This document shows, in pieces, positions 3,242 to 43,194 of a stretch of 64,000 nucleotides of DNA. Location of the stretch: the NCBI GenBank assembly GCA_016699405.1, contig CP064972.1, forward strand, positions 4,172,130 to 4,236,129, in the 5' to 3' direction. This stretch comes from Holophagales bacterium. Lineage in GTDB: Bacteria; Acidobacteriota; Thermoanaerobaculia; Multivoradales; JAGPDF01. The first letter of the stretch is position 1; every line of letters starts with the position of its first letter. The notes under the pieces are model-generated. The model saw nothing but the letters and a program-made list of their open reading frames with translations, was not told where the DNA came from and made no database searches. The position numbers and the translations under genes are program-made.

Positions 3242-3376
3242 GACGACCGCACTACGCCTCGCGCCCGACGCGACGAAGCGCGCAAAAAGAGGCCTTCGCG
3301 CCGCTGCGACGACCCTGGCGCCGCATAGAATCCGTACCATCTCTTGGACAGTGCCCGAAGCGGGCAGGAGCGCGAC

Positions 3377-14898: not shown

Positions 14899-15729
14899 TC
14901 AGACAATCCAGAATCTGACCTGCTGCTCCTCGAGGAAGCTCCGCGCTCCGCTGCCCTGGAGGTAGGCGAGGGTCGAGAGCGTACCGGCCTCGAGACAGGA
15001 ACGGGCGACGACGGTGACCGACCGCGGGGCGCCCTGGACCGGCCAGCCGGTGCGTGGGTCGAGGATGTGGCCGAGGCGCTTGCCGCGCCAACGCACGAAG
15101 CGTCGGGCATCGCCGCTGGTCGCCAACCCCGCGCAGGCGAGGTCGAGGCGAACCAGGGCAGCCCGGCCGGAGCGTTCCGGGTCGTCGATCCCGATGCTCC
15201 AGGTGCGGCCGCCCCGTCGGAGATGGCCGACGCAGAGGTCGCCGCCGAAGTTCACCACCGTCGAGGCCGAGGAGCGAGCGGCGAGCAGCGCCGCCACCCG
15301 GTCGACGGCGTACTCCTTGCCGAGGCCGCCGAAGTCGATCTCCATCCCCGCCGGCAGCGTGAGCTCGGGATCGCTCCAGCCGACCTTCGACCACCCCACG
15401 AGCGCGAGACACTCGCCGATCGCCCGCGCCGACGGGATCTGCGTGCCACCGTCGAACGACCAGATCCGCCGCAGGACTCCCGAGGTGATGTCGAACCGCC
15501 CGCCCGAGAGCTCCCAGCAGGTGGCGGCGTAGTGGAGCAACTGCGCGGTCTCCTCGTCGACGCAGACCGGCCGGCCCCCTGCGAGATGGATCTGGTGGAC
15601 GACGCTGTCATCACGATAACGGCTGAACTTGCGCTCGACGCGCCGCGCTTCCTCCGCCGCGATCGCGACGAGCGCCGTCGCCTCCTCGCGATCGTCGGTG
15701 TCGACGAGGACCGAGCAAGGGCTCGCCAT
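14899..15729 (-). CDS. apbE: FAD:protein FMN transferase (ApbE family)
   Basis: ApbE-like sequence throughout (…RRVERKFSRYRDDSVVHQIN… matches the conserved ApbE N-terminal region; …GGLGKEYAVDRV…). No hydrophobic signal peptide lies upstream of Met-15729, so the protein is possibly cytoplasmic or its start is mis-set. Confidence 0.75.
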   Translation of the reverse strand: MASPCSVLVDTDDREEATALVAIAAEEARRVERKFSRYRDDSVVHQIHLAGGRPVCVDEETAQLLHYAATCWELSGGRFDITSGVLRRIWSFDGGTQIPSARAIGECLALVGWSKVGWSDPELTLPAGMEIDFGGLGKEYAVDRVAALLAARSSASTVVNFGGDLCVGHLRRGGRTWSIGIDDPERSGRAALVRLDLACAGLATSGDARRFVRWRGKRLGHILDPRTGWPVQGAPRSVTVVARSCLEAGTLSTLAYLQGSGARSFLEEQQVRFWIV

Positions 15730-15831
15730 CGCCGAGAACCGTCCGACGAAGTAGTCCTCGACGCGCTCGGTCGCCGGAGGCAGCTCCGGCGACCGGGCGA
15801 CGTCGTGCGGGCGAGCGGACAGGAGCGGCCC

Positions 15832-17127
15832 TCAGAAGCGGCGCGAGTAGGCAACGACCAGCGCGACGCTGTTGACTCCCGGCGCCAGGTCGAATCGGCG
15901 CTGCACGCCGATCGCGCCGTCCGGCGAGCCGTCCCCCTGTTGCCGGATGTAGTCCGCCCGCACCGTCCATTCCCCGGGGCTCTCGAACGCCCGGAAGGTG
16001 AAGGCGGCTCCCAGGGTGACCGAGCTCAGCTTGCCCAGCCGGTAATCGGCGGTGGCGAACTCCGGCAGATCGGCCCCTTGGACCAGCCCGGCGGTGAAGA
16101 AGTTGGCCGCCGTCTGCTGATAGAGCCGCAGCCGCGGCTCGAGGTACCAGCCGTCGCCGAGGTCGTGTCGGTACTTCAGCTCGAGGGTGTGGGAGCGCAC
16201 GTCCCACGAGTCCCAGTAATAGCGGTAGGTGCTGTAGAAGATGTCGTCGGTCAGATGGTAGACCGAGCTCAGCAGCAGCGAGTTGCGGTCGCGCGTCGAC
16301 GGCCGCTTGTCGGTGAGCTGGCCGACCGGAACGCCGGTGCGCGGGTCCATCAGGCTGATCACTTTGTACGGCTCGGTGAGGTAGCCCCGCTCGGCGGTGC
16401 GCGAGGCGTCGAGCGCCACCATCCAGCGGCGCGAGAGGATGCGCGACAGGCCGAACAGCACGCTCGTCGAGCGCTTCGAGTTGTTCCGGTCGACGAGCAC
16501 GTTGCCGTCGGAAAGACCCTCGGGTGTCCCGCCGAGGGGCGAGACGCGGTCCTCGTTGACGCCGGCTCCGACGGTGAGGGTGAAGAGCTTCTGCATCAGG
16601 TCGAAGGTGACCTTGCCGTTCGCCCCGAGCGACTCGTAGTCCTTCTCGTGGGAAGCGTGCAACCCGATCGTCGAGGCCGCGAGCCTGCCGAGAGGCGCCT
16701 GCCATTCGCCGTCGAGCGCCACGCGCTGGTCCTGAAAGTCGTTCAACGGGATCTCTCCGGCGGCCGAGGTGGTGACGCGACCGGAGGCACTCGTGTGCGT
16801 CTGCACGCTGCCCGACGGCAGCGCGCCCGTCGGCGAGGCGCCGGTGATCACGTCCACGGTGAGCTGCCCCGAGAGCGACTGCCCGTTGCCGAACAGGCGC
16901 GACGCGCGCACGATCGGTTCGTAGACCTGCGCCCGGCCCTGCTCGCCGTAGAGCAGGGTCGTGATGTCGAGCTGGTTGGCCGGCTGCGTCGACTCGGCCG
17001 AGGCGGCCGCGGGAACCAGCAGCAACGCGAGCGCTGCCTTGCCCAGTCGGTCGCGGAGCGACGGCGTGACCTCGCCGCCCGGAGCCGGCGCGGTGGCGGC
17101 TGCGGCGTCTCTTTCCTCTAGTTGCAT
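15832..17127 (-). CDS. DUF3570-family protein (predicted outer-membrane β-barrel), carries candidate flavinylation motif
   Basis: Signal-peptide-like N-terminal region (LGKAALALLLVPAAASAES). Alternating β-strand pattern. C-terminal …VVAYSRRF with terminal Phe. DVITGAS is encoded at 16834-16854. Confidence 0.7.
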   Translation of the reverse strand: MQLEERDAAAATAPAPGGEVTPSLRDRLGKAALALLLVPAAASAESTQPANQLDITTLLYGEQGRAQVYEPIVRASRLFGNGQSLSGQLTVDVITGASPTGALPSGSVQTHTSASGRVTTSAAGEIPLNDFQDQRVALDGEWQAPLGRLAASTIGLHASHEKDYESLGANGKVTFDLMQKLFTLTVGAGVNEDRVSPLGGTPEGLSDGNVLVDRNNSKRSTSVLFGLSRILSRRWMVALDASRTAERGYLTEPYKVISLMDPRTGVPVGQLTDKRPSTRDRNSLLLSSVYHLTDDIFYSTYRYYWDSWDVRSHTLELKYRHDLGDGWYLEPRLRLYQQTAANFFTAGLVQGADLPEFATADYRLGKLSSVTLGAAFTFRAFESPGEWTVRADYIRQQGDGSPDGAIGVQRRFDLAPGVNSVALVVAYSRRF

Positions 17128-17348
17128 CCGCAGCCTCCGCCTCCGACGTCCTGACCGCCCATCGACGCCTCCTTGCTGAAGTAGATGTGGTCGTCGATGC
17201 CGCGCAGCATCGGGCAGGGATTGAACCGCATCCCCTTCTCGGCGAGCAGGTCACGGTCCCACGGACGCACGCTCGCGCACCCGGCGAGCGCACCGGCGAG
17301 AAGCAGCGTGGCGGCTGCACGCGGCAGCCAGGTCGACAGGTCTCTCAT
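17118..17348 (-). CDS. DUF4266-family lipoprotein
   Basis: 76 aa. Lipobox LAGC. Family-typical C-terminal GGGGCGCN. 10-nt overlap with the downstream DUF3570 gene. Its start overlaps the tlpA-like stop (ATGA). Confidence 0.7.
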   Translation of the reverse strand: MRDLSTWLPRAAATLLLAGALAGCASVRPWDRDLLAEKGMRFNPCPMLRGIDDHIYFSKEASMGGQDVGGGGCGCN

Positions 17349-17881
17349 CTCGCGACGGCCTCCTCGATCCGTCTCTCGATCGCTTCCTCGTCTCGCACGG
17401 CGAATCCGGCATGTTCGAACACGATCCGGCCGTGGCGGTCGACGACATAGCTCGACGGCATGGTCGAGACGCCGTACGCCTCCGCCGTCGTGCCTGCCGG
17501 GTCGAAGGCCACGGTGAAGCTGGGCGAGAACTCGCGCAGAAAGGCCGCGGCCGGCTCCCGCCGCTTGTCGAGATTGATCGCCACGACCACCAGACCGGAC
17601 GAGCGGTAGCGCTCGGCCATCGTCGACAGCCAGGGGAACGACTGCCGGCACGGTCCACACCACGAGGCCCAGAAGTCGATCAAGACCACCTTGCCGCGCA
17701 GCGACTCGAGCGAGACCGGTCCGCGCTCGGTCGGCAGGTCGAAGGCCGCCGCGGACGCCGGCACGGTTGCCGCGGCCCCCTCCGGAGGACGGCGGCGCGC
17801 CTCGGCGGGCGGCGCCAGGAGCGTCGTGAGGAGCAGGAGGGTGAGTCTGGCGAGCGAGCGGATCCCGTGGGCTTCGCGGCG
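17345..17881 (-). CDS. thioredoxin-like thiol:disulfide oxidoreductase (TlpA/ResA family)
   Basis: WCGPC active site (…VVLIDFWASWCGPCRQSFPW…). N-terminal membrane anchor or signal (IRSLARLTLLLLTTLLAPP). Start codon is uncertain; the ATG-based ORF extends to 18031 through an R/S-rich stretch that is probably not coding. Confidence 0.7.
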   Translation of the reverse strand, partial: RREAHGIRSLARLTLLLLTTLLAPPAEARRRPPEGAAATVPASAAAFDLPTERGPVSLESLRGKVVLIDFWASWCGPCRQSFPWLSTMAERYRSSGLVVVAINLDKRREPAAAFLREFSPSFTVAFDPAGTTAEAYGVSTMPSSYVVDRHGRIVFEHAGFAVRDEEAIERRIEEAVAR

Positions 17882-18078
17882 AAGCGATCGGGTGGAGGAA
17901 AAGAGAGCGGTGCGCACGGGTTGGCGCGGCGAGCAAGAGCGGTGCCAGGCCGACGACGCCGAAAGGGCACCGCTCGCGGGGTCCGATGTCGTCATCCCGG
18001 GACAGCTCCGTCGCTTTTCGAGACGGTGCATCGAGGGACAGCAGGTCGATCTCGCGATGGCGGAAGGGTCGAGCCGTC

Positions 18079-20788: not shown

Positions 20789-21265
20789 TTACTCGGCGAG
20801 GTCCTGCTCCAGTCGGGAGCGCCAGCCTTCGACGGTCGAGCGATCCGAGGCGCCGGGATAGAAGCGCCCCGGGGCGAACAGTGAGAGCTTCTCGCCACCG
20901 CGCAGCGTCAGGACCAGGAAGTGCTGCATGACGTCGCTCGACCGCTTCCCGAGCGAGCCGACCCCGACGCCGAGCACCTCCGAGAACTCGATCGTCCGGC
21001 GCTTCGTGGCGAAACGACCGCTGTCCTCGATGGTGATCCGACGCTCGCGCGGGTCGATCGTCACGCGCTGCCGACCTCCAGTGACGAGACCGGCGACACC
21101 GATCGCCAACAGGAGAAGACCCAGCGCGAATCCGGCACGCGCGTTCGGGCCTCCGGCGTCGAGGTGGCGAAAGCCGACCACCAGCAGGAGGCCGACCGCG
21201 GTCGACAGCAAGGCCGTGCCGGTCTGTTTGGCGGGACTGCTCTGCGCTCCCCAGGCCTCCCTCAC
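20789..21265 (-). CDS. small membrane protein, possible bacterial PH-like (bPH) domain
   Basis: Two N-terminal transmembrane helices followed by a soluble domain. Starts 22 nt downstream of the kinase gene on the same strand. Confidence 0.5.
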   Translation of the reverse strand: MREAWGAQSSPAKQTGTALLSTAVGLLLVVGFRHLDAGGPNARAGFALGLLLLAIGVAGLVTGGRQRVTIDPRERRITIEDSGRFATKRRTIEFSEVLGVGVGSLGKRSSDVMQHFLVLTLRGGEKLSLFAPGRFYPGASDRSTVEGWRSRLEQDLAE

Positions 21266-21286
21266 CGAGCCCTCCTCCGATCGTGA

Positions 21287-23254
21287 TCAGGTGCGCGCCG
21301 CGCCGGACGGCGGACCGCCTTTCGACCCGCCCGTCGGAAGCCACTGCGTGTGGGCAGCGGTGGCGAAGGCGTCGTCGGGCCGGGTCGAGACCGGAGAGGC
21401 CGGGAGCTTCCAGACGGCGTCGCGGACGCGCACCCAGTCGACGAGCTCGGCGACGGTCTCCGCCGCCTCGGGTCGCTTCTCCGGGTCGCGCTCGAGCAGG
21501 CGATGGACCAGCGACGCGAGCCGCGGCGGAATTCCGGGCACCAGATCGGCGAGCGGACGGATCCGCGCCGACAGCGTGCGCTCCATCACCTCCGAAGTGC
21601 GCGGCGCAGCGAACGGCTGCTCGCCGGACAGGGCGGCGTAGAGCACGACGCCGAGCGAGAAGAGGTCGCCGCGCGGAGTGAACGGTTCGGAGAGAAAGAC
21701 CTCGGGCGGCACAAAACCCGGCGTGCCGAAAATCCGTCCCGGCTCGGCACGGGCCGCCGAGGCGACGAACGCCGCGAGCCCGAAGTCGACGACCTTGATC
21801 GCGCCATCGCGCCCGAGCAGCACGTTGCCGGGCTTGATGTCGCGATGCACGACGCCCTGCGCGTGCGCCAGCTCGAGCGCCCGGGCAACGGCGAGGCCGA
21901 GGCAGGCGGCGGGATCGGCGCCGAGGCGGCCGACCTCCCAGAGCAGCAGCTCGAGCGTCTTGCCTTCGACGAGCTCCATGGCGATGAAGGCACCGCTCGG
22001 CGACGCGACGGCGTCGTAGACCGCCACGACGTGCGGGTGGGTGAAGCGAGCGATGGTCGTTGCCTCGCGCAACAGCGCGGCGATCCGCTCGTCGCGCTCC
22101 AGCTGGGCGACGGCCGAGTCGAGACGCAACGTCTTGAGGGCCACCGGTCGCTCGAGGCGCGGATCCCAGCCGCGATAGACCATCCCCATGCCGCCCACGC
22201 CGAGCGCCTCGACGACCTGGTAGCGGCCGAGGAAGACGCGCGAGAGGTCGTCGCGATCGGCCACGCCGCGCGCCAGCCGGGCGAAGCCGGCCTCGAGCTG
22301 CTCGATCTCCGAGCCGCTGGCCGCCGCGCCGCCGGCCGCCCGCTGCGCCTCGAGCATCCGCCGCACCGGGCGCACGATGGTGATCCACGCCCCCTGCGCC
22401 GCGAGCGCCACCAGCGCCAACGCCGCGGCGATGGCGAAGAGAGCGCGCCGCCGCATGCGCCACGCCGCCGCCTCGGCGACCGCGGCGCTCTGCCGCGACA
22501 GCACGACCCAGGAGGATCCGGCCACCGGCGCCCAGGCCCCGAGCTGACGATCGCCGCCCCGGCTCTCTGCCTGCTGGGCTCCGCGCGCCCTGCCGGCGAG
22601 CGCCATCTGAACCACCGTGGGCGGCATTTCGTCGAGCGTTTCCAGCGGCCCGGCGAGCACCGCCCCCGAGCGATCGGCGAGCACCAGCACCGCATCGTCG
22701 CCGAGCTCCTCGGGACGCAACAGGTCCCCGAGTCCGCCACCCGCGGCGACGAGACGCACCGCCCCGCCACCGCTCGGACGGTCGACGATCACCAGCAGGT
22801 CGGCGCGCTCGCCCAGCCCACGGACCCCGGGCTGGAGCGGCAGGCCGCGCACCCGTTCACCCGCCGCGCGAGCGACCGGCGACGCAAGCTGCGCCCGCAC
22901 CCCTTCCCGCCCCTCGCCATCGACCAGGGCGAGCGCGAGCGCGCCGAGGTCGGCCCACGACGAGAGGCTCTCGCCGAGAAGACGTCGCGCCGCCGTCCCG
23001 TCGGCCTCGGCGAGCTCCGGGCGCGCGGCGAGCGAGGAGACGAGGGCGGAGCGGGTGGCGAGCCAGGACTCGACCCGCTCGGCCGTCGCCCGCGCCGCCA
23101 CCACGTGACTGCGCAGGACCTGCTCGGTCATCGCCTCCCGGTTGAGCGAGACGAGCTGCCAGGAGACGAGCCCGAGCGGCAGCAGCGCGACGAGCGCGAG
23201 CGCCGCCGCGACGCGTGCGAGCAGCCCCGAACCCCGGCGCCGTGGCCAGCTCAC
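21287..23254 (-). CDS. sensor serine/threonine protein kinase (N-terminal TM-periplasmic sensor-TM, C-terminal Hanks kinase)
   Basis: GVGGMGMVYRG…VALK, HRDIKPGNVLL, DFGLA and GTPGFVPPE motifs. Two transmembrane segments flank a periplasmic domain of about 230 aa. GTG start with GTGA overlap onto the upstream FHA-EAL stop. The rest of track ORF 21287..26698 is read-through artefact. Confidence 0.8.
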   Translation of the reverse strand: MSWPRRRGSGLLARVAAALALVALLPLGLVSWQLVSLNREAMTEQVLRSHVVAARATAERVESWLATRSALVSSLAARPELAEADGTAARRLLGESLSSWADLGALALALVDGEGREGVRAQLASPVARAAGERVRGLPLQPGVRGLGERADLLVIVDRPSGGGAVRLVAAGGGLGDLLRPEELGDDAVLVLADRSGAVLAGPLETLDEMPPTVVQMALAGRARGAQQAESRGGDRQLGAWAPVAGSSWVVLSRQSAAVAEAAAWRMRRRALFAIAAALALVALAAQGAWITIVRPVRRMLEAQRAAGGAAASGSEIEQLEAGFARLARGVADRDDLSRVFLGRYQVVEALGVGGMGMVYRGWDPRLERPVALKTLRLDSAVAQLERDERIAALLREATTIARFTHPHVVAVYDAVASPSGAFIAMELVEGKTLELLLWEVGRLGADPAACLGLAVARALELAHAQGVVHRDIKPGNVLLGRDGAIKVVDFGLAAFVASAARAEPGRIFGTPGFVPPEVFLSEPFTPRGDLFSLGVVLYAALSGEQPFAAPRTSEVMERTLSARIRPLADLVPGIPPRLASLVHRLLERDPEKRPEAAETVAELVDWVRVRDAVWKLPASPVSTRPDDAFATAAHTQWLPTGGSKGGPPSGAART

Positions 23255-24390
23255 GGCAGCTCCTCCGGCAAGGGCGCCGGACGGCCGAAGTGGAACCCCT
23301 GACCATGGGAGAAGCCGAGCTCGGCGCAGCAGCGCGCCTCCCCGGCCGTCTCGATCCCCTCGGCGACGGTTTGCAGGCCGAGCCGGCGCGCCGCGTCCAC
23401 CAGGGCGGCGACGAACTGCCGCCGGGGCTCGCCGGCACGATCGATCCCGCGGACGAGCTGGAGATCGAACTTGAGAAACTGCGGCGGCACCTCGAGGATC
23501 TCCTGCAAGCGGGCGAGGCCGGCGCCGAAGTCGTCGTAGGCCAGGCCCATGTCGAGTGCCGCGAGCTCCTCGCGCAGGATTCGCAGGCGCTCGACCGGCA
23601 TCGCCAGCTGTTCGCTGATCTCGACGACGACACGGCGCCCGGGGTGAGCGCGCCGCATCGCGCGGAACGAGGCGACGAGACGGCGCGTCTCGAGCTCCCC
23701 GGCGTTGACGTTCAGGAAGAGCAGCGACTCCGGCGGGAGATGGCGGGCCGCATGAAACGCGTCCTGGCGGAGGAGCTCGGTCAGCTCGACGTCGAGGCCG
23801 ACCTCCTCGGCGATCGAGAAGAGCCCGAGCGGGGACTCCGGAAGGTCCTCGTCCCGTCCGAGGCCGAGCGCCTCGTAGCCGATCCGTTCGCCCTCCGGCA
23901 GCCGCACGATCGGCTGGAAGCGCGACTCGACCCGCCGCTCGTCGATCAGCCGGCGCAGGCTTCGCGCCTCTTCGATCCGGCTGCGCAGGCGCGGCATGGC
24001 GCAGGGCGGCGAGCTCAGCGTCGTCGTCTCGAGCCAGACACGATCCTGCTCGCCGGTCAACCGCCCGAGCCGGAACTCGAGATCGGCGAAGTGGACGATG
24101 TCTCCTTCGGCGAACACCGTCTCGCCGGTCAGCCGGACCCCGTTGAGGTAGGTGCCGTTCGTCGAGCCGAGGTCGCGCAGCAGGAGCGCGGCCGGGCCGC
24201 GACGGATCTCGGCATGTTCGAGCGAGACCTGCGGCGACGGCAGTGCGAGGTCGAGATCGGAACGACGACCGACGCGGCAGGGCAGGCGCGCCAGCGCGAG
24301 CCGCCAGAGCTGACGCGAGGAGGGCTCGATTCCCTCGAGGTACCACTCGAACGACGCGGGTCCGGAGCTCGTCATCGGAGGCTGCCACAC
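23251..24390 (-). CDS. FHA domain-EAL domain protein (c-di-GMP phosphodiesterase with phosphothreonine-binding FHA)
   Basis: FHA region (…LRDLGSTNGTYLNGVRL…), then an EAL domain with the EAL, DDFGAG and EGIET motifs. Confidence 0.8.
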   Translation of the reverse strand: MWQPPMTSSGPASFEWYLEGIEPSSRQLWRLALARLPCRVGRRSDLDLALPSPQVSLEHAEIRRGPAALLLRDLGSTNGTYLNGVRLTGETVFAEGDIVHFADLEFRLGRLTGEQDRVWLETTTLSSPPCAMPRLRSRIEEARSLRRLIDERRVESRFQPIVRLPEGERIGYEALGLGRDEDLPESPLGLFSIAEEVGLDVELTELLRQDAFHAARHLPPESLLFLNVNAGELETRRLVASFRAMRRAHPGRRVVVEISEQLAMPVERLRILREELAALDMGLAYDDFGAGLARLQEILEVPPQFLKFDLQLVRGIDRAGEPRRQFVAALVDAARRLGLQTVAEGIETAGEARCCAELGFSHGQGFHFGRPAPLPEELP

Positions 24391-24508
24391 GAGGTGAGCG
24401 AACGCTGCCCACGTCGATCGACTGGCTTATCATAAGGGCAACCGTTCGAGTCAGGCCGGGTGCCGGACCGCGCTTGCCGGTCCATGCTCCGACGACGAGG
24501 AGACCTCC

Positions 24509-26266
24509 ATGCGCCAAGCTCACGCGACGATCTGCCCGGCTCTTCTCCTCCTGCTCGGCGGAGCGCTCGCGGCCGGCGCGAGCGAGCTCCAGCCCCAGGG
24601 TTGGCACGTCGTGCGCCCCGGCGACACACTCCTCGATCTCACCCGCACCTACACCGGCTCGACCGACCCCTGGAGAGACAACTGGGGGCTCAACACCTTC
24701 GTGCAGGATCCCGACCTGCTGCAGCCCGGCTGGCGCCTGCGCCTGCTCCTCCAGCCGGCGCACTCGCGGCCCGCGGCACAGCTCGTCCAGCTCGCGCGAC
24801 GCGTCGAGAGCAAGCCCGCGCCGCAGCCGTGGGGTCCCGCTCAGGTGGGCGACCTGCTGCTCGACCGTGACGCGGTGCGGACCTTCGACGGCGCCTCGAC
24901 CGAGCTCGCCTTCACCGACGGCGGCCATCTGCGCCTGACCGAGCGTTCGCTGGTCTTCCTCGTCCGCCCCACGCAGTCTGTCGCCAGCGCCCGCCGCGGT
25001 GTCGAGATCGTCGAAGGCGAAGCCGACCTCCAACTCGGCGACGCCGGAGCGGCACGGCGCGAGGTCGAGGTCGTGGCCGGCAGTGCGCGCGCCGCGCTGC
25101 GCACGGCGCCCGGCTCCGAGGCCTCCTCGCGCACGCGACGCGCCGTCGCGGGCGGTTCGCAGTGGATGATCTACCAGGGTGACGCGACGCTCGCCGCCGG
25201 CGGCAAGCGCGTCGAGCTCGCCGCCGGCACCGGCAGCACGGTCGCCGCGAAGTCTCCGCCGACGCCGCCCGAGGCCCTGCTCCCGGCGCCGGCGCTGCGA
25301 CCGACCCACGGCTCGGCGACGGTCGCGGCCCATCTCGAGCTCGCCTGGGAGGCGGTGCCGGGCGCGGCCCGTTACATCGCCGAGCTCTGCCCGGATTCCG
25401 CCTGCGGCGTCGTCCTGCAACGCGTGACGGCCCTCGCCGAGCCGCTCTGGCGGCCGGAGCCGATCGAACCCGGCGACTACTACTGGCGCGCCAGCGCGGT
25501 CGCCCCCTCGGGGCTCGACGGCTTCGCGGCCCCGGCCCAAGCACTGAGCGCCCTCGACCACGAGCCCGACACGCTGGCTCCCGAGGCGCGCCTGGGAGTC
25601 GGCGGCCCCCACGTCGAGATCGACGGCGAACCGGTCTTCTCCGGCGAGGCGATCGTCCAGCTCACGGCGAGCGACGAGGGCAGCGGCGTGGCACGGCGGA
25701 CGCTTCTCGTCGACGGCACCGCAGCCGAGGAGTCGCGGCTGCGCGGACCGTGGGCGAGCGGCGAGCATCGGGTCGAGGCGCGCGTCGCCGACCGCGCCGG
25801 CAACGAAGCGGTCGTCGGGCCGTTGATCTTCACCGTCGACGCCGACGCCCCGCAGATCGAGCTCGAACCGGCGACCGCGGGATCCGACTCGAACGGCGTC
25901 TGGCGGATGCTCAGCGAGCTCTCGTGGACCGCCGATCAGGGATGGAGCGCCTGGCGCTGGATCTCCGGCGAGCGTCGCCTGCACCGCGACCTCGTCCGCG
26001 GGGCCTGGAGCCTCGGGGGCGGCGAGCCGACGCTCTCGCTCGCGTGGCGCGGCACGCCGCACGTCAGCGGCGATGGCACGCAGGCGATTCCCGGTGGCCC
26101 GTCGCTCGCCTTCACCGCACGCGATGCCGGATCCGGGGTCGCGACCTTCCGACTGCGGCCGAAACAGCGGCGTGAGGGCGATCGGCAGATCCTCGTGCTC
26201 CGTTTCGACAGCGCCGACCGGCTCGGCAATCGCCGGGTGCTGACGCTCGAAGTCCGTCCCGATTGA
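24509..26266 (+). CDS. secreted LysM-FecR domain protein with C-terminal Ig-like/β-sandwich region
   Basis: GAGGAG RBS. Signal peptide. LysM (WHVVRPGDTLLDLTRTY). FecR-like region (…DAVRTFDGASTELAFTDGGHLRL…). Confidence 0.7.
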   Translation: MRQAHATICPALLLLLGGALAAGASELQPQGWHVVRPGDTLLDLTRTYTGSTDPWRDNWGLNTFVQDPDLLQPGWRLRLLLQPAHSRPAAQLVQLARRVESKPAPQPWGPAQVGDLLLDRDAVRTFDGASTELAFTDGGHLRLTERSLVFLVRPTQSVASARRGVEIVEGEADLQLGDAGAARREVEVVAGSARAALRTAPGSEASSRTRRAVAGGSQWMIYQGDATLAAGGKRVELAAGTGSTVAAKSPPTPPEALLPAPALRPTHGSATVAAHLELAWEAVPGAARYIAELCPDSACGVVLQRVTALAEPLWRPEPIEPGDYYWRASAVAPSGLDGFAAPAQALSALDHEPDTLAPEARLGVGGPHVEIDGEPVFSGEAIVQLTASDEGSGVARRTLLVDGTAAEESRLRGPWASGEHRVEARVADRAGNEAVVGPLIFTVDADAPQIELEPATAGSDSNGVWRMLSELSWTADQGWSAWRWISGERRLHRDLVRGAWSLGGGEPTLSLAWRGTPHVSGDGTQAIPGGPSLAFTARDAGSGVATFRLRPKQRREGDRQILVLRFDSADRLGNRRVLTLEVRPD

Positions 26267-26312
26267 GCGCCGCGGGTTCGACGATCGGCGGCGGACGCGA
26301 GACGACCGCGGC

Positions 26313-28718
26313 ATGAAGACGGGCGCGCTCGCCCGCCTGCGGCGTCGTCTGCCGTCGCGTCGCGTGCTGGGACGCTCGGCGCTCGCTCTGGCCGGCGTCG
26401 GCGCCGCGGCGCTCGCGGCCCTCGCCTTGTCGCGCGCCCGGCTCGAGTCGCCCGCGCCGACCCTCCTCGCCCGCGACCGGAGCGGCCAGTACCTTGGCGA
26501 GTTGCCGGCCGGCGACGACGACCGGCTCGGCTTCTGGCCCGCGACACCGATCCCGGAGCGCGTCGCCGCCGCGACGCTGGCGATCGAAGACCGTCGTTTT
26601 CGTCTCCATCCGGGCGTCGACCCGCTCGCCCTGCTCCGCGCCCTGCGCCAGAACCTCACCGCCGGTCGCCGCGTCTCCGGCGCCTCGACACTCGCCATGC
26701 AGGTCGCCCGGATGCAGCGCCCCGGCTCCCGCGGCTACTGGCGCAAGGCGCTCGAGGCCGCCACCGCGCTCCTCCTGACGGCGCGCTACGGCCGCGATGC
26801 CGTGCTCGCCCACTACTTGAGGATCGTGCCCTACGGCAATCGCATCCACGGGATCGCCTACGCGGCGCGGCGCTACCTCGACAAGCCGGTCGACGACCTC
26901 TCGTGGGCCGAGGTGGCCTTCCTCACCGCCATCCCCCAGTCGCCCGCTCGGATGAACCCCTACGACCCGCGCGGGCGCCTGCGGGCGATCCAGCGCGGGC
27001 GAGAGATCCTCGGACGACTGGCCGAACGAGGCGACCTCCCGGCCCGGGATCTCGCCGTGGCGCTCGACGAGATCGAGCACCTGCGCCTGCCCTGGCGCGG
27101 CGAGCGACCGGCCGCGGCGATCCACCCGCTGCTTGCTCTGGCCCGCCAGGTGCCCGAGGCCTGGCGCGCCAGCCGTCCGCTCCTCGCCACCACGCTCGAG
27201 CTCGAGCTGCAGCGCGAGGCCGAATGGCTCGCCTACCGCACGGTGGCCGACGAGTCCGACCGCGGCGCCGGCAACGCCGCGGTGCTGATCGTCGATCGCG
27301 CGAGCTGGGAGGTGCGGGCGGCGGTCGGCTCGACCGGGTACTTCGACACGCGACGCGGCGGCGCCATCGACTACCTGCGGCTGCCCCGCTCTTCCGGGTC
27401 GACGCTCAAGCCGCTGCTCTTCGCCCAGGCGCTCGAGCGCGGGACGATCGCTCCCAACACCGTGCTCGACGATCTCGAGCCCGGGCCGGGGGGGATCCTC
27501 AACTCCGACGAGCGCTACCTCGGCCCGCTGCTGCCGCGACTGGCGCTCGCCAACTCGCGCAACGTGCCGGCGGTCGAATTGCTGTCGCGTCTCGGCCTCG
27601 ACGCCTTCTACGGCTTCCTCGCCGATCTGCGCCTGCATGCCCACGAAGAGACGGCACGGCACTACGGTCTCGGCCTGGCGATCGGCTCGCTGCCCGTCAC
27701 GCTCGAGCGGCTCGTCACCGCCTACACCGTGCTCGCCGGCGACGGACGGCTGCAGGAGCTGCGCTGGCTCGCCGGCGCCCCGAGCCCCGAGGCACCACGC
27801 CGCGTGAGCGAAGCGACGGCGCGGCGGATCACCCTCTTCCTCGCCGATCCGCAGGCCCGGCTTCCGACCTTCCCGCGGATGGGCTTCTCCGAGTACCCGT
27901 TCCCGGTGGCCGTGAAGACCGGCACGTCGTCGCGTTACCGCGACGCCTGGACCGTCGCCTGGTCGGAGCGCTACCTCGTCGGCGTCTGGGTGGGACACCC
28001 CGACGAGCGGCCGATGAGCGCGCTCTCCGGGTATCGCATCGCCGCCCGGCTCACCCAGACGCTGCTCGAGCGACTGCACCGCGACGAGCTCGACGGCCAG
28101 TCCGGCCGCTCGTTCCCGCCTCCCGCCGGCGAGCATGCCGAACGGCTCTGCGCGCTCACCGGCGCGCGCGCCACCGCGGCCTGCGATCGCGTGCTGCTCG
28201 AGTGGCTGCCCGACGGCATCCCGGCCCCGGGCGACTGCCGCGCTCACCGTCAGGTGGGGATCGATCGCCGCAACGGGGCGATCGCCAACGCCGCCACGCC
28301 GCCCGCCGAGGTGGAGATGCGCACCTTCGTCGACCTGCCGACGCGCTACGCCGCGTGGCTGATCCACCAGGGGGTGCCGAGCCTGCCGCAGGCGCTCGCC
28401 GACGCGGCGCATCGCGCCGAGGCCCAGGTGCTCGATCTCTCCGGCCAGCTGCCGCGGGTCGAGATCACCGCCCCCGAGCCCGGCACGCGCATGCTGCGCG
28501 ATCCGGAGACACCGCCCGAGCTCAACACGCTCCGCCTCGCGGCGGCGGTCGAGCCGCCGGTGCCGCAGCTCGTCTGGTATCTCGACGGCCGCCCCCTGGC
28601 GACGGTCGAGAGGCCGTACACGCTGCGCTGGCAGCTCGAGCCCGGCGAACACGTCTTCCAGGCCCGCGTGCCGTTCAGCGAGGCACGCTCGCCGCTGGTG
28701 CGGATCACCGTCGAGTAG
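26313..28718 (+). CDS. pbpC: penicillin-binding protein 1C (bifunctional transglycosylase/transpeptidase)
   Basis: Transglycosylase EDRRFRLHPGVD, transpeptidase SSGSTLKP, PbpC-type C-terminal domain. 801 aa. Confidence 0.85.
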   Translation: MKTGALARLRRRLPSRRVLGRSALALAGVGAAALAALALSRARLESPAPTLLARDRSGQYLGELPAGDDDRLGFWPATPIPERVAAATLAIEDRRFRLHPGVDPLALLRALRQNLTAGRRVSGASTLAMQVARMQRPGSRGYWRKALEAATALLLTARYGRDAVLAHYLRIVPYGNRIHGIAYAARRYLDKPVDDLSWAEVAFLTAIPQSPARMNPYDPRGRLRAIQRGREILGRLAERGDLPARDLAVALDEIEHLRLPWRGERPAAAIHPLLALARQVPEAWRASRPLLATTLELELQREAEWLAYRTVADESDRGAGNAAVLIVDRASWEVRAAVGSTGYFDTRRGGAIDYLRLPRSSGSTLKPLLFAQALERGTIAPNTVLDDLEPGPGGILNSDERYLGPLLPRLALANSRNVPAVELLSRLGLDAFYGFLADLRLHAHEETARHYGLGLAIGSLPVTLERLVTAYTVLAGDGRLQELRWLAGAPSPEAPRRVSEATARRITLFLADPQARLPTFPRMGFSEYPFPVAVKTGTSSRYRDAWTVAWSERYLVGVWVGHPDERPMSALSGYRIAARLTQTLLERLHRDELDGQSGRSFPPPAGEHAERLCALTGARATAACDRVLLEWLPDGIPAPGDCRAHRQVGIDRRNGAIANAATPPAEVEMRTFVDLPTRYAAWLIHQGVPSLPQALADAAHRAEAQVLDLSGQLPRVEITAPEPGTRMLRDPETPPELNTLRLAAAVEPPVPQLVWYLDGRPLATVERPYTLRWQLEPGEHVFQARVPFSEARSPLVRITVE

Positions 28719-32877: not shown

Positions 32878-34614
32878 ATGCCAACTCCCCTTCGACGACT
32901 CGCCGCCTCGCTCCTGCTCTCGCTGCTTCCGCTCGCTACCGGGGCCCAGACGCCACCTCCTCCCTCCTCGCCGATCTTCGGCGAGACGGTCGAGGTCAAC
33001 GTGGTCAACGTGGAGGTGATCGTCGTCGACAAGGACGGCCGCCCGGTCGTCGGCCTCGGTCGCAACGACTTCGAGCTCCTCGAAGAAGGCAAGCCAGTGC
33101 CGATCGAGTACTTCTCGGCGCCCGAGCCCGGAGCGGTCTTCGTGCCGCTTCCCGGCGCCCCGGCCACCGCCACCCCCGAGCCCGTGGTGGCGCCCTCAGG
33201 AGAAGTCACTCTCCCGCCGCAGCGTCCTCTCCTGGTGGTCTACGTCGACGGTCTCGACCTCCGGCCCGGTCCACGCAACGATTCCCTCAAGCGACTCGCG
33301 CGCCTGGTCGAGGACCGCATGAAGATCGGCCACCGCGCCCTCGTCGCCGCCTTCGATCATCAGCTCCGTGTACTCACCCCGGCGACGGACGACAGCAAGC
33401 TCGTCCAGCGGGCGATCGAGGAGATCAAGACGATCAACCCCGGCGGCACCGGGCTGCAACTCCGCCGGCGGACGTTGCTCGCCGAAATTCAGAGTACGTT
33501 CGCGGGAGATCCGACCGGCATCGCCCAGGCCGGACTCCTGCTCCACGACATCGAGTCCTACGCTGCGGCCGAGACCGTGGAACGGCGCGCGGCCATGGTC
33601 GCGCTCTCCGACCTGCTCGCCACGCTCGCCGGCGTCGACGGCCCCAAGGCCGTCCTTCACCTGAGCGGTGGCCTCTACGTGCAGCCCGGCGACGAGCTCT
33701 ATTCCGCCTGGCAGCGCCACTTCGGCTCGTTGGTCGCCAGCGATCTCGACCACCGGCGAGCTGGCGGCGACCCCGACGCGACCATGCTGCAGCGCGAGCT
33801 GACGCGCGTGACCCGCTCGGCGCAGGCAAGTCGTGCGGTGATCTACGCCGTCGATGGCGCCGATCGGCTGCCGGAAGGTTTCACCGCGGAAGACCAGGGT
33901 GAGGTCGAGTCGACCGGCGACATGCCGGGCGTGCTCGGCGCCGCCGAGGCAGCATCCAATCTAGCCAGCATGGCCGAGCGCAGCGGCGGCCGCAAGCTCC
34001 TCGCCGGTCCCGGCCTCGACGCCGAACTCGGCAACGTGGCGAGCGAGCTGGCTTCGGCCTATTCGCTCGGCTTCACACCGCATGGAACGGTCGATGACAA
34101 GTTCCACAAGGTCACTGTGCGGGTCAAACGCGAAGGCGTGAAGGTGCGCCATCGCGAGGGCTACCGACGCCGCAGCACGGAGGATCAACTTGCCGACACC
34201 GCGGTCGCCGCGGCCAGCCTCGGGGCGGCGCCGAACCCTCTCGCCGCACGACTCGAGGTGATCGTCGGCGCCGCGTCCAAGGGCAACGGCAAGGCAAGGA
34301 TCGTCCAAGCCCTCGCCAAGGTACCGCTCACCGAGCTGACGTTGATGCCGGCCAAGGACACCAAGACCGGCAAGCTCGTCCTCGAGTTCGCGCTGCGCGA
34401 CGAGGACGGCCGCGTGAGTCGCTTCGAGCGGCGCGAGCAGTCGTTCACCTTCCCTGCCGCCAACCTCGCCGCGGCGATCAACCGCCCGGTCGCCTACGGT
34501 GTGGAAATGCGGCTCAACCCGGGGCGCTACCGGCTGGCCGCCTCGATCCTCGACGGCATCGGCGGCAACCGCACGACGGCCACCGCCGAGTTCACCGTCC
34601 CGGGCAGACGCTGA
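32878..34614 (+). CDS. secreted VWA-domain protein (VWFA-related Acidobacterial-type), paralog A
   Basis: Signal peptide. …VVNVEVIVVDKDGRPV… Roughly 65% identical to the paralog at 35316-37082 and alignable with those at 43195 and 47021. Confidence 0.8.
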   Translation: MPTPLRRLAASLLLSLLPLATGAQTPPPPSSPIFGETVEVNVVNVEVIVVDKDGRPVVGLGRNDFELLEEGKPVPIEYFSAPEPGAVFVPLPGAPATATPEPVVAPSGEVTLPPQRPLLVVYVDGLDLRPGPRNDSLKRLARLVEDRMKIGHRALVAAFDHQLRVLTPATDDSKLVQRAIEEIKTINPGGTGLQLRRRTLLAEIQSTFAGDPTGIAQAGLLLHDIESYAAAETVERRAAMVALSDLLATLAGVDGPKAVLHLSGGLYVQPGDELYSAWQRHFGSLVASDLDHRRAGGDPDATMLQRELTRVTRSAQASRAVIYAVDGADRLPEGFTAEDQGEVESTGDMPGVLGAAEAASNLASMAERSGGRKLLAGPGLDAELGNVASELASAYSLGFTPHGTVDDKFHKVTVRVKREGVKVRHREGYRRRSTEDQLADTAVAAASLGAAPNPLAARLEVIVGAASKGNGKARIVQALAKVPLTELTLMPAKDTKTGKLVLEFALRDEDGRVSRFERREQSFTFPAANLAAAINRPVAYGVEMRLNPGRYRLAASILDGIGGNRTTATAEFTVPGRR

Positions 34615-35315: not shown

Positions 35316-37082
35316 ATGAACCCGCTCATCCGACCCCACGTCGCGCGCTTCGCCCGCGCCCTGGCCCACCTCGTCGTCGCGTCCGGCCTGATCGTCGTCT
35401 CCACGCACGCGGCCGCCGCCCAGACCCCTCCCCCTTCGGCTCCGGTCTTCGGCGAATCGGTCGAGGTCAACCTGGTCAACATCGACGTCGTCGTCGTCGA
35501 CAAGGACGGCCGACCGGTCGTCGGGCTGACGCGCGACGACTTCTCCCTCTTCGAGGAAGGCCGGTCGGTTCCGATCGAGTTCTTCTCCGGCCCCGAGCCG
35601 GGCGCCGTCTTCGTGCCGCTGCCGGGGGCCGCAGCCGCTCCCGCCGCCCCGACGCCGACCGTCCAACCCACCGCCGCGCCGGTGCCGCCGATCCAGCGCC
35701 CGGTGCTGGTGATCTACGTCGACGGGCTCGACCTGCGCCCCGGTCCGCGCAACGACTCGCTCAAGCGCCTCGCCCGGCTGGTCGACGATCGGATGATCAT
35801 CGGCCACCGCGTGCTGCTGGCGGCGTTCGACCGGAACCTGCGACTGCTCACCCCGGTGACCGACGACCGCAAGCTCGTCCGCCGGGCCTTCGACGAGCTG
35901 GCGACGATCAACCCGGGTGGCATCGGCATGCAGACGCGACGCCGGACGCTGCTCGCCGACATCCAGAGCACCTTCGCCGGCGACTCGGCCGGGAACTCGC
36001 AGGCCGAGAGCCTCCTGCACGACATCGAGGCCTACGCCACCTCCGAGACCCAGGAGCGTCGCGCCGCGATGGTGGCGCTTGCCGACCTGCTCTCCACGCT
36101 CGCCGGAATCGACGGGCCGAAGGCGGTCTTCCATCTGAGCGGAGGCCTCCCGGTGCAGCCGGCCGACGACCTCTACTCCGCCTGGCAGCGCCGCTTCGGC
36201 TCGTCGGTGAGCAGCGACCTCGACCATCGCCGCACCGGTGGCGATCCCGACGCGCAGATCCTGCAGCGGGAGCTGCAGCGCATCACCCGGGCCGCCCAGG
36301 CCAGCCGCGCGGTGATCTACACCGTCGACGGCGCCGACCGCCTCGCCGAAGGGCTGAGCGCCGAGGACCAGGGTGAGGTCGAATCGAGCGGCGACGCTCC
36401 CGGCGTCCTCGGCGCGGCCGAGGCGAGCTCGAACCTCGCCAGCCTCGCCGAGCGCAGCGGCGGCCACAAGCTGATGGCCGGTCCGGGCCTCGACGGCGCT
36501 CTCGGCGACGTGGCGAGCGAGCTCGCCTCGACGTATTCACTCGGCTTCACGCCTGCCGGAACGGCCGACGACAGGTTGCACTCGGTCACCGTGAAGGTGA
36601 AGCGCGAAGGGGTGACCGTGCGCCATCGCGAAGGCTACCGCCGGCGCAGCACCGAGGATCAGCTCGCCGACGCGGCGATCGCCGCCGCCAGCTTCGGGGC
36701 CACGCAAAACCCGCTCGCCGCGCGGGTCGACGTCGCGGTGGGCGGCGCTGCCAAGGGGAAGGCGCGCATCGTCAAGGTGCTCGCCAAGGTTCCCCTGTCG
36801 TTGATCACCTTGATGCCGAACGGCACCTCGCAGTCCGGCAAGCTGGTCTTCGATTTCGCACTGCGGGACCCGGACGGGCGTGTCACGCGCTACGAGCGGC
36901 GCGAACAGGCGTTCAAGCTCGCCGCCGACAAGGTGGCCGAGGCGCTTGGCCGCCCCGTCGCCTACGGCATCGAGATGCACCTCGTGCCGGGAACCTACCG
37001 GCTCGCGGCGTCGATTCTCGACGCGGTCGGCGGCACCCGCACCACCGCGGCTGCCGAGTTCACCGTCCCCGGCAGTCGCTGA
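35316..37082 (+). CDS. secreted VWA-domain protein (VWFA-related Acidobacterial-type), paralog B
   Basis: Signal peptide (HLVVASGLIVVSTHAAAAQ). Collinear with paralog A. Confidence 0.8.
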   Translation: MNPLIRPHVARFARALAHLVVASGLIVVSTHAAAAQTPPPSAPVFGESVEVNLVNIDVVVVDKDGRPVVGLTRDDFSLFEEGRSVPIEFFSGPEPGAVFVPLPGAAAAPAAPTPTVQPTAAPVPPIQRPVLVIYVDGLDLRPGPRNDSLKRLARLVDDRMIIGHRVLLAAFDRNLRLLTPVTDDRKLVRRAFDELATINPGGIGMQTRRRTLLADIQSTFAGDSAGNSQAESLLHDIEAYATSETQERRAAMVALADLLSTLAGIDGPKAVFHLSGGLPVQPADDLYSAWQRRFGSSVSSDLDHRRTGGDPDAQILQRELQRITRAAQASRAVIYTVDGADRLAEGLSAEDQGEVESSGDAPGVLGAAEASSNLASLAERSGGHKLMAGPGLDGALGDVASELASTYSLGFTPAGTADDRLHSVTVKVKREGVTVRHREGYRRRSTEDQLADAAIAAASFGATQNPLAARVDVAVGGAAKGKARIVKVLAKVPLSLITLMPNGTSQSGKLVFDFALRDPDGRVTRYERREQAFKLAADKVAEALGRPVAYGIEMHLVPGTYRLAASILDAVGGTRTTAAAEFTVPGSR

Positions 37083-43049: not shown

Positions 43050-43194
43050 GCTACATGACAATACGACGCCGACGCTCCGCGCGTCCAAGCCGGCGCCTCC
43101 GCCGGGCGGCCAACCGCAAGAACCTTGGCGACGACCCGCGCGTACACCGACTATCATGGGCTCGTCGTGCACTCGCACGCGGGCTGGAGATTTC

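Follow-up and report, generated by a model that had tools for sequence, protein, structure and literature searches.

The window (the entire 64,000-nucleotide stretch of DNA analyzed here) derives from a Holophagales (Acidobacteriota) genome and contains a probable envelope-signaling module of three genes, which encode a receptor kinase, a secreted LysM-FecR protein and an FHA-EAL protein. The first-pass annotation had recognized these three genes together with two neighbors, a small ORF and pbpC, and had placed an A2M gene farther upstream. The same layout was returned by a plot of third-codon-position GC, by Pfam and by the independently called genes of identical contigs in public databases, all of which agreed on the five genes. 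The features are as follows.

8767-14676, plus strand: A2M, 1969 aa, with a GCTEQ thioester motif
20789-21265, minus strand: small ORF (small membrane protein), 158 aa
21287-23254, minus strand: receptor kinase, 655 aa
23251-24375, minus strand: FHA-EAL protein, 374 aa
24376..24508, no strand: divergent intergenic region between the FHA-EAL and LysM-FecR genes, 133 bp
24509-26266, plus strand: FecR-type (LysM-FecR-Ig-like) secreted protein, 585 aa; signal peptide, LysM-like 33-78, FecR 121-199, Big_13/OmpL47-type 375-444
26313-28718, plus strand: PbpC, 801 aa; Transgly, Transpeptidase, BiPBP_C

The finer positional claims of that annotation were also borne out. The stop codon of the FHA-EAL gene and the start codon of the kinase gene overlap in a GTGA, the kinase gene and the small ORF are separated by 21 nt with a Shine-Dalgarno sequence (GGAGGAGG), and 11,636 nt separate the A2M stop from the start of pbpC, in line with the proposed distance of 11.6 kb. 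The arrangement of A2M, module and pbpC is real and was also found in a sister contig (L085). The notion that the module by itself splits A2M from pbpC stood for L085, where the three genes are the only thing separating the two; there, A2M (86% identical) ends where the kinase gene ends, and the two are convergent. It did not stand for the window, in which ca. 10 genes intervene; about seven of these, including ApbE, DUF3570, redoxin, proB, proA and a small ORF, lie between A2M and the module.

Both outlying genes carried the hallmarks of their families. PbpC is a PBP1c-type bifunctional peptidoglycan synthase in which all three expected domains were present in Pfam; its score against the NCBIfam model PBP_1c (TIGR02073) was 456.7 bits over a full-length alignment, just below the equivalog cutoff of 494.2. 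A2M is of type I, with GCTEQ (an instance of CXEQ) at residue 1474 and the macroglobulin and bait-region domains MG2, A2M_BRD, A2M and bMG10 identified by Pfam.

In the divergent intergenic region, alignment to L085 revealed a 22-nt AT-rich block (24420-24441; palindrome CTTAT-C-ATAAG) that was conserved amid diverged flanks. Scans for sigma-70-like promoters found none, and the count of predicted intrinsic terminators was at chance level, with none between the LysM-FecR gene and pbpC.

The FHA-EAL protein and the receptor kinase

The domains and motifs of the two proteins are listed below.

24088..24276, minus strand: FHA domain, residues 34-96
24016..24027, minus strand: linker motif T117-T-T-L120, candidate phospho-acceptor and FHA ligand (pT-x-x-L)
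23278..23964, minus strand: EAL domain, residues 138-366
22448..23155, minus strand: periplasmic sensor region of the kinase, dCache-like, residues 34-269
Kinase residues ~11-33 and ~270-292: TM1 and TM2
Kinase residues 293-340: HAMP-like linker
Kinase residues 345-601: Hanks kinase domain (Pfam Pkinase, PF00069; 5.6e-48, 164 bits)
Kinase residues 637-641: QWLPT, in the C-terminal tail

Pfam identified both domains of the FHA-EAL protein (FHA, PF00498, at 4.7e-17 and 62.6 bits vs. a cutoff of 20.7; EAL at 1.8e-41), the architecture is common to more than 1500 homologs, and the mean pLDDT of the AlphaFold2 model was 89.6. The phospho-threonine-binding residues of the FHA domain, which make up its G-R, S-x-x-H and N-G-T pocket (G36, R37, S51, H54, N73, G74 and T75), were invariant among 120 family members. 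Between the domains, the T-x-x-L motif opens a linker (117-128) that is predicted to be disordered (pLDDT<50 in the AlphaFold2 model). Position 117 was Thr in 99 of the 120 family members and Ser in 8, and the position +3 from it was L, I or V in 90. The motif was absent from the FHA-EAL proteins of other phyla that were compared.

The EAL domain had originally been described as having apparently intact motifs. EAL, DDFGAG and EGIET are present, and so are conserved metal-binding and general-base residues (E168, N222, E252, E255, D281, D282, K302, E339, E342 and Q359). From work on RocR and TBD1265, an active EAL phosphodiesterase is expected to feature the substrate-contacting Arg of EALxR and a loop 6 that conforms to DFG(T/A)GYSS. 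The window copy reads EALGL, with Leu172 at the position of the Arg, although 90% or more of family members retain the Arg. Its loop 6 is DDFGAGLARL (vs. DDFGTGYSSL in MucR), and the non-canonical form DDFGAG(L/Q)ARL is found family-wide. Because of these two departures, catalysis by the window EAL is not assured. In structure comparisons, the fold resembled those of the active phosphodiesterases PA3825, MucR and RocR.

The missing Arg and the altered loop would also be expected if the EAL domain were a c-di-GMP receptor and not an enzyme; the FHA-EAL protein would then serve as an adaptor for the kinase, docking on its phosphorylated form, and c-di-GMP would modulate or localize kinase signaling rather than be its output. 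The non-catalytic EAL receptors LapD and FimX were among the structural matches. However, all of the metal-binding and general-base residues are conserved, the Arg is retained in most of the family, and the best matches in both structure and sequence were active phosphodiesterases; a receptor role is unlikely.

The kinase (AlphaFold2 model with a mean pLDDT of 88.9) is predicted to be an active Hanks-type Ser/Thr kinase. The VAIK Lys (K374), the alphaC Glu (E397), the elements of HRDxKxxN (HRD470-472, K474 and N477) and DFG490-492 were invariant across the family, as were G354/G357 of the Gly-rich loop and P517-E518 of the APE-type motif. Foldseek returned M. tuberculosis PknB as the nearest solved fold, and the top structure was that of PknB with its FHA substrate GarA.

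The periplasmic domain of about 230 aa that had been noted at first pass was recovered as predicted residues 34-269 (about 236 aa), and its fold appears to be dCache-like. In the window kinase, dCache_1 (PF02743) scored 30 bits vs. a cutoff of 45 and was aligned over profile positions 1-79 only; 12 of 13 kinase family members matched this profile (best 1e-11). The secondary structure in the AlphaFold2 model, in which a long stalk helix leads into two alpha/beta modules, is compatible with dCache. A Foldseek search with the full-length model returned kinase matches alone and no independent structural match for the sensor fold, and a profile search of the PDB with the kinase family yielded only weak HAMP and chemoreceptor matches for the sensor. 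Pfam found no PASTA repeats in the kinase, and the sensor is N-terminal, not C-terminal, to the kinase domain. For the HAMP-like region, PF00672 was matched by 6 of 13 relatives (best 1e-5), the Af1503 HAMP domain was matched by the family profile at a weak E=0.04, and helices were predicted by AlphaFold2 at 258-308 and 316-337. As judged from these profiles and models, the kinase appears to be built as a chemoreceptor or histidine kinase would be (TM, dCache-like, TM, HAMP), with a Hanks Ser/Thr kinase as its output.

A C-terminal motif, [QR][WFY]-x-x-T-x-x-[LVIM], occurred in about 75 of 120 kinase homologs and was folded as a short strand by AlphaFold2. It was considered as an FHA-specific docking site and rejected because it is equally common in the kinases linked to response regulators, which are described next.

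Genomic neighborhoods in related bacteria

In 10 non-redundant loci, including that in the window, the FHA-EAL gene adjoins the kinase gene directly upstream and in the same orientation, although the proteins are only 35-50% identical. In 20 loci, the same slot is occupied by an OmpR-type response regulator. The kinases of these 20 loci form one derived clade, and the FHA-EAL-linked kinases branch more deeply. The proposal of a three-gene operon was therefore upheld for the FHA-EAL/kinase pair and not for the small membrane protein, a homolog of which was absent from every related kinase locus; the conserved operon comprises two genes, not three. The small membrane protein is the product of a real gene, which is probably co-transcribed with the kinase here and has a coding-type third-codon-position GC, the Shine-Dalgarno sequence given above and 198 representative homologs. 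Its candidacy as a module member was rejected: a 55%-identical homolog adjoins accBC and P-II genes, an unrelated context.

Other acidobacterial FHA-EAL genes adjoin different kinases (L090, L006, L021 and L050), and no kinase was found within 10 kb of FHA-EAL in L086, L088 or L091. The 657-aa gene that follows FHA-EAL in L086 was examined as a degenerate kinase and discarded, as it had neither similarity nor a Pfam match. The FHA-EAL genes of Planctomycetota, Gammaproteobacteria and Desulfobulbia mostly had no kinase within 10 kb. Because the genes of other phyla mostly have no kinase nearby and their proteins have no linker T-x-x-L, the kinase coupling is clade-specific.

The many FHA-EAL genes with no adjacent kinase, along with the further kinase-domain matches in several of the fetched loci, could be taken to mean that adjacency reflects co-expression only, such that the FHA domain reads the phospho-threonine of another kinase or protein while the dCache kinase acts on other substrates. 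Ser/Thr kinases are generally numerous in the genomes of these phyla. This explanation is nonetheless very unlikely: an abutting or overlapping arrangement, suggestive of translational coupling, has been retained in 10 loci that are deeply diverged, and another signaling output, the response regulator, takes exactly the slot of FHA-EAL. Since the pair is conserved and the FHA and kinase residues are invariant, phospho-threonine control of the EAL protein, as proposed at first pass, is the best reading of these sequences.

The LysM-FecR protein belongs to a family of ~600-aa proteins and includes a domain with conserved Cys294/Cys299. In the window copy, FecR (PF04773) was marginal in Pfam (24.9 bits vs. 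a cutoff of 24) and Big_13 was also matched; FecR was found in 18 of 19 orthologs. The LysM assignment was below threshold for the window copy taken alone, which spanned the full profile (PF01476) at 14.6 bits vs. a cutoff of 20.9, but was clear at the family level, with matches in 16 of 19 orthologs (best 3e-9) and a match of the family profile to the LysM domain of TsaP at 4.9e-11. The LysM domain of the window protein thus appears to be homologous but divergent.

The earlier pairing of the LysM-FecR gene with pbpC was not supported. Among 29 informative loci, 25 have its ortholog beside the kinase, and where an output gene is present too, the two genes are neighbors in every case (22/22). 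Of 43 kinase loci, just two have PbpC; it and A2M accompany the module in the window genome and in L085 only, and neither turned up in the flanking sequence (up to 10 kb) fetched for the remaining 41. In evolutionary terms, the LysM-FecR gene is a partner of the kinase and not of pbpC. That the protein mainly serves PbpC, e.g. by binding peptidoglycan and activating or scaffolding PBP1c in an A2M-PBP1c periplasmic defense unit with the kinase incidentally adjacent, would suit the shared strand, the short gap (46 nt in the window and 51 nt in L085), the lack of a predicted terminator in it and the binding of peptidoglycan by LysM domains, but is largely refuted by this synteny and is extremely improbable. 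We infer instead that the LysM-FecR protein is a co-receptor or ligand-presenting partner of the kinase.

Proposed signaling route

The reading that we favor, and hold to be moderately probable from the sequences, is that the receptor kinase, its LysM-FecR partner and the FHA-EAL protein constitute a module in which phospho-threonine controls the EAL domain and c-di-GMP. The LysM-FecR protein, the dCache domain or both would capture a periplasmic signal, possibly a glycan that contains GlcNAc, e.g. peptidoglycan fragments. Transmitted via the HAMP region, the signal would switch the kinase on. The kinase would then generate phospho-threonine, for which Thr117 in the linker T-x-x-L of FHA-EAL is the favored candidate site and the kinase itself an alternative. 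The FHA-EAL protein would be cytoplasmic and would share its mRNA with the kinase. Its FHA domain would bind the phospho-threonine in cis or across a dimer, and the dimer state, activity or location of the EAL domain would be altered, with a consequent change in c-di-GMP hydrolysis, whatever its direction. The majority of relatives would use this sensor pair to drive an OmpR-type response regulator instead.

Cell-wall state had been suggested as the input. We retain it as a hypothesis that draws on the presence of LysM in the partner protein and on the nesting of the module between A2M and pbpC in two genomes only. It could be extended to damage sensing, a scenario that we consider quite doubtful. 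The LysM-FecR protein would capture peptidoglycan fragments and act on the dCache-HAMP kinase, and the pair would have been recruited into an A2M-PBP1c defense locus; an envelope breach would then be met jointly by protease trapping (A2M), peptidoglycan repair (PBP1c) and a kinase-driven change in c-di-GMP via FHA-EAL. If this were true, the module would supply a signaling arm for bacterial "periplasmic immunity" and the first EAL phosphodiesterase controlled by a Ser/Thr kinase. A literature search found no paper describing an FHA-EAL protein or the control of an EAL protein by a kinase.

The input of Ser/Thr phosphorylation into c-di-GMP signaling is poorly understood, and no kinase is known for DgcB, the one structurally studied case. 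Here, neighboring genes encode a kinase, its probable extracellular partner and an FHA-tagged c-di-GMP enzyme, and Thr117 is a candidate phospho-site; the question is therefore directly testable with three recombinant proteins. In addition, a chemoreceptor-style input (dCache-HAMP) appears to be wired to a Hanks kinase, and the exchange of FHA-EAL for an OmpR-type response regulator on one sensor pair amounts to a natural experiment in pathway rewiring.

Relation to known systems

The closest studied case to FHA-EAL is DgcB (Bd0742) of Bdellovibrio bacteriovorus, an FHA-GGDEF diguanylate cyclase that is gated by binding of its FHA domain to a phospho-threonine in the tail of the same protein (PMC6733907). 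Both proteins join a consensus FHA domain, at the N-terminus, to a domain that metabolizes c-di-GMP; the output is synthesis (GGDEF) in DgcB and degradation (EAL) here. The ligand in DgcB is located in the N-terminal tail, whereas residues 1-10 of FHA-EAL are not conserved and its candidate T-x-x-L (117-120) follows the FHA domain, in the linker. No kinase has been assigned to DgcB (PMC6733907), whereas a receptor kinase is encoded immediately downstream of FHA-EAL.

In the Actinobacteria, the small FHA proteins GarA and OdhI are phosphorylated by Hanks kinases (PknB/PknG) at a Thr-rich motif, and the FHA domain binds the protein's own phospho-threonine. The motif in GarA, ETTS, compares with ETTTL in the FHA-EAL linker, and the FHA domain here has weak similarity to OdhI. 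GarA and OdhI bind and regulate TCA-cycle enzymes and have no enzymatic domain, whereas FHA-EAL carries its EAL. PknB, for its part, senses via PASTA repeats at its C-terminus, and its membrane topology is opposite to that of the window kinase. PASTA receptor kinases (PknB, PrkC and StkP) are likewise transmembrane Hanks kinases and are thought to read extracytoplasmic, peptidoglycan-derived signals; here, by contrast, the sensor is N-terminal and comprises dCache-like and HAMP regions, and LysM resides on a separate secreted partner.

In the type I A2M-PBP1c periplasmic defense locus, as in the window, a PBP1c-type synthase and an A2M with a CXEQ thioester share a neighborhood (PMC5764988). 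The two genes are not adjacent here; the module lies between them in L085, and in the window the further genes intervene as well.

Finally, RocR and PvrR (REC-EAL) similarly have a stand-alone EAL domain that is preceded by a small domain of the receiver type, dependent on phosphorylation, and the EAL domain of RocR is a close structural match to that of FHA-EAL. Their input is aspartate phosphorylation by a histidine kinase, whereas that of FHA-EAL would be FHA recognition of phospho-threonine from a Hanks kinase.

Gene content of the window

The G+C content of the window is 73%, and long spurious ORFs therefore occur in every frame. Genes were called from the G+C content of third codon positions, and the calls were cross-checked against independent calls on public contigs encoding identical proteins. 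Domains were assigned using Pfam.

Genes of the window, with Pfam domains
8767-14676, forward strand: A2M (thioester alpha-2-macroglobulin), 1969 aa; MG2, A2M_BRD, A2M, bMG10
20789-21265, reverse strand: small ORF (membrane protein), 158 aa; no Pfam match
21287-23254, reverse strand: receptor Ser/Thr kinase, 655 aa; Pkinase 345-601
23251-24375, reverse strand: FHA-EAL protein, 374 aa; FHA 34-96, EAL 138-366
24509-26266, forward strand: FecR-type (LysM-FecR) protein, 585 aa; FecR, Big_13
26313-28718, forward strand: PbpC, 801 aa; Transgly, Transpeptidase, BiPBP_C

The layout given in the first-pass annotation was borne out by third-position G+C, Pfam and the independent calls, and its GTGA is indeed the overlap of the FHA-EAL stop with the GTG start of the kinase. 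In GenBank (exact-sequence look-up), the kinase is labeled “protein kinase”, the FecR-type protein “FecR domain-containing protein”, and PbpC “transglycosylase domain-containing protein”. A 21-nt spacer, containing GGAGGAGG, separates the kinase from the small ORF. The small ORF encodes a genuine two-TM protein of a conserved, uncharacterised family (proteins of ca. 160 aa, 198 representative homologues) that has no Pfam model. The proposed three-gene operon survived in part: co-transcription of the small ORF is probable here, but the small protein was rejected as a member of the conserved module, as no homologue was found at any related kinase locus and a 55%-identical one was found in an unrelated context.

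The interval from A2M to the kinase holds ApbE, DUF3570, a redoxin, proB, proA and the small ORF. The first three genes (a flavin transferase, DUF3570 and a redoxin/thioredoxin-like protein; 14899-17917, reverse strand, between A2M and proBA) look like a periplasmic redox-maturation cassette. Elsewhere (44949-48244, forward strand), the gene for a TPR protein of 691 aa is overlapped by the start of the next gene, which encodes a VWA-domain protein of 407 aa; large ORFs lacking a Pfam match are located nearby at 33001-34614, 35316-37082 and 42361-44886.

Kinase loci and their neighbors

A profile of the kinase sensor region only, which avoids generic kinase motifs, was scanned against metagenome contigs. 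With look-ups, 43 non-redundant kinase loci were obtained, the window included.

Same-strand gene immediately 5' of the kinase
FHA-EAL: 10 loci
OmpR-type response regulator: 20 loci
Neither output, flank sufficient: 10 loci
Flank too short for judgement: 3 loci

The co-occurrence of kinase and FHA-EAL was thus recovered in relatives (10 of 43 loci, counting the window). The more constant neighbor was the orthologue of the 585-aa protein, which adjoined the kinase in 25 of the 29 loci with sufficient flank and in all 22 informative loci having either output gene. The kinase, rather than pbpC, is the evolutionary partner of the LysM-FecR gene. This gene is divergent and upstream of the kinase in the window, in its sister contig (L085) and in L087, and convergent and downstream in the other loci. 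The four informative loci in which it is missing belong to a kinase subclade that is more remote and has neither output. The earlier interpretation was kept in part, its center shifted to a sensor pair of kinase and LysM-FecR protein whose outputs are interchangeable. In a rough neighbor-joining tree, the response-regulator-linked kinases formed one derived clade and the FHA-EAL-linked kinases several deeper branches; because of this, the FHA-EAL wiring looks old and the response regulator a later replacement.

In the response-regulator loci (L092, L093, L095-L137; 20 non-redundant), the regulator retains the receiver Asp. All other copies of it share 76-84% identity with that of L092, whereas the kinases are only ca. 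45-50% identical to that of the window. In L092 and L093, the regulator has stand-alone REC, Hpt and Hpt-REC-GGDEF genes as neighbors. These loci look like a hybrid circuit of a Hanks kinase and two-component elements.

The neighbors of FHA-EAL genes were also inspected. Among the closer relatives (45-72% identity), the dCache-like kinase lies immediately 3' of FHA-EAL in L085, L087 and L089. Kinase and FHA-EAL are linked in another way in L090 (6392-11120), where a cyclase is also present: a different, cytoplasmic Ser/Thr kinase precedes FHA-EAL and a GAF-GGDEF gene follows it, all in one direction. Kinases occur upstream on the opposite strand in L006, L021 and L050; none was found near FHA-EAL in L086, L088 or L091, and in other phyla a kinase is rarely within 10 kb. 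In three of the kinase-linked loci (L102 2854-3558, L111 223-927 and L116 7977-8702), FHA-EAL is immediately preceded by an EAL-only paralogue, ca. 30% identical to the EAL half.

The window A2M carries a GCTEQ thioester motif and is therefore of type I, a type usually reported adjacent to pbpC (PMC5764988). PbpC resembles PBP1c along its entire length (457 bits vs. an equivalog cutoff of 494 bits). The proteins of L085 are 64-86% identical to those of the window, and the gene convergent on the kinase 3' end is an A2M (86% identical, GCTEQ retained). The order in L085 is A2M, kinase, FHA-EAL, LysM-FecR, PbpC, CN-hydrolase; thus, the three-gene module is the sole content between A2M and PbpC there, which supports the described separation of these two genes by the module. 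Beyond the window and L085, no kinase locus had PbpC or A2M within the flanks inspected (up to 10 kb). Possibly, the module was functionally recruited into an A2M-PBP1c “periplasmic defence” unit, a nesting seen in one lineage only. Upstream of A2M, a secreted ORF of ca. 1800 aa (3344-8770, forward strand) had no match in Pfam or NCBIfam. Its stop overlaps the A2M start (ATGA, 8767-8770, with GGAGG upstream), and this ORF is a possible, hitherto undescribed operon partner of the type I A2M.

Features of the three module proteins

All Hanks catalytic motifs of the kinase were invariant in 120 homologues, and M. tuberculosis PknB was the closest structure to the kinase domain. The protein comprises an N-terminal TM1, a ca. 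236-aa periplasmic region, TM2, two helices and the kinase domain (AlphaFold2, mean pLDDT 88.9), a topology inverted relative to that of PknB-type kinases. The periplasmic region scored 30 bits against dCache_1 in the window, below the cutoff of 45 bits; 12 of 13 relatives matched this profile, the best at 1e-11. For the helices after TM2, a HAMP match was obtained with 6 of 13 relatives, and the Af1503 HAMP domain was a weak match in the PDB. A structure search with the full-length model returned only kinases and no sensor-fold match. A C-terminal motif, [QR][WFY]-x-x-T-x-x-[LVIM] (residues 637-644; 21323-21346), is predicted by AlphaFold2 to be a short strand and lies 0-13 residues from the end in ca. 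75 of 120 homologues (P0121-P0240). It was rejected as an FHA-specific docking site: it is equally common in response-regulator-linked and FHA-EAL-linked kinases, and therefore does not explain FHA specificity.

The FHA-EAL architecture is widespread: over 1,500 proteins, 360-410 aa long and mostly metagenomic, have it. No curated NCBIfam family, no solved structure (structure and sequence searches) and no paper on such proteins (literature library searched) were found. The FHA pocket residues and the EAL metal-binding and general-base residues are invariant in the family. Phosphodiesterase activity is likely but not assured, because the Arg of EALxR, kept in at least 90% of the family, is replaced in the window protein (L172) and its two closest relatives, and because loop 6 is DDFGAG(L/Q)ARL family-wide vs. 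DDFGTGYSSL. In the AlphaFold2 model (mean pLDDT 89.6), the linker 117-128 is of low confidence (pLDDT<50). It begins with T117-T-T-L120, which fits the classical FHA ligand pattern pT-x-x-[L/I]; of 120 members, 99 have Thr at position 117 and 90 have L, I or V at +3. The motif is not present in FHA-EAL proteins of Planctomycetota, Gammaproteobacteria or Desulfobulbia.

Aligned orthologues of the 585-aa protein have a signal peptide, an N-terminal LysM, FecR, a domain with two invariant cysteines, and Ig-like domains. The LysM of the window copy is sub-threshold (14.6 bits); the name LysM-FecR is nonetheless right at the family level, since 16 of 19 orthologues gave a significant LysM match and the profile of the family hit the TsaP LysM domain at 5e-11. 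Within the otherwise diverged FHA-EAL/LysM-FecR intergenic region, a 22-nt AT-rich block (24420-24441, GACTGGCTTATCATAAGGGCAA) that includes the palindrome CTTAT-C-ATAAG is shared with L085 and is a candidate operator or promoter element.

Proposed signaling route

In the best-supported reading, every functional step of which we infer, the LysM-FecR protein and the dCache-like domain would jointly read a periplasmic signal, and the HAMP-like linker would relay it to turn on the kinase. GlcNAc-containing glycans are the leading guess for the ligand because of the LysM domain in the partner protein. Kinase activity would yield phospho-threonine, either at Thr117 in the linker of FHA-EAL or at a site in the kinase; its binding by FHA would alter the activity, oligomeric state or location of EAL. 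Hanks-kinase-to-FHA signaling is the known part; no description was found of the EAL output or of the dCache-HAMP/secreted-partner input attached to it here, whose functions are putative. The proposed route is paralleled by GarA/OdhI, in which FHA binds a phospho-threonine of its own polypeptide. It is also paralleled by Bdellovibrio DgcB, whose FHA domain does likewise (PMC6733907).
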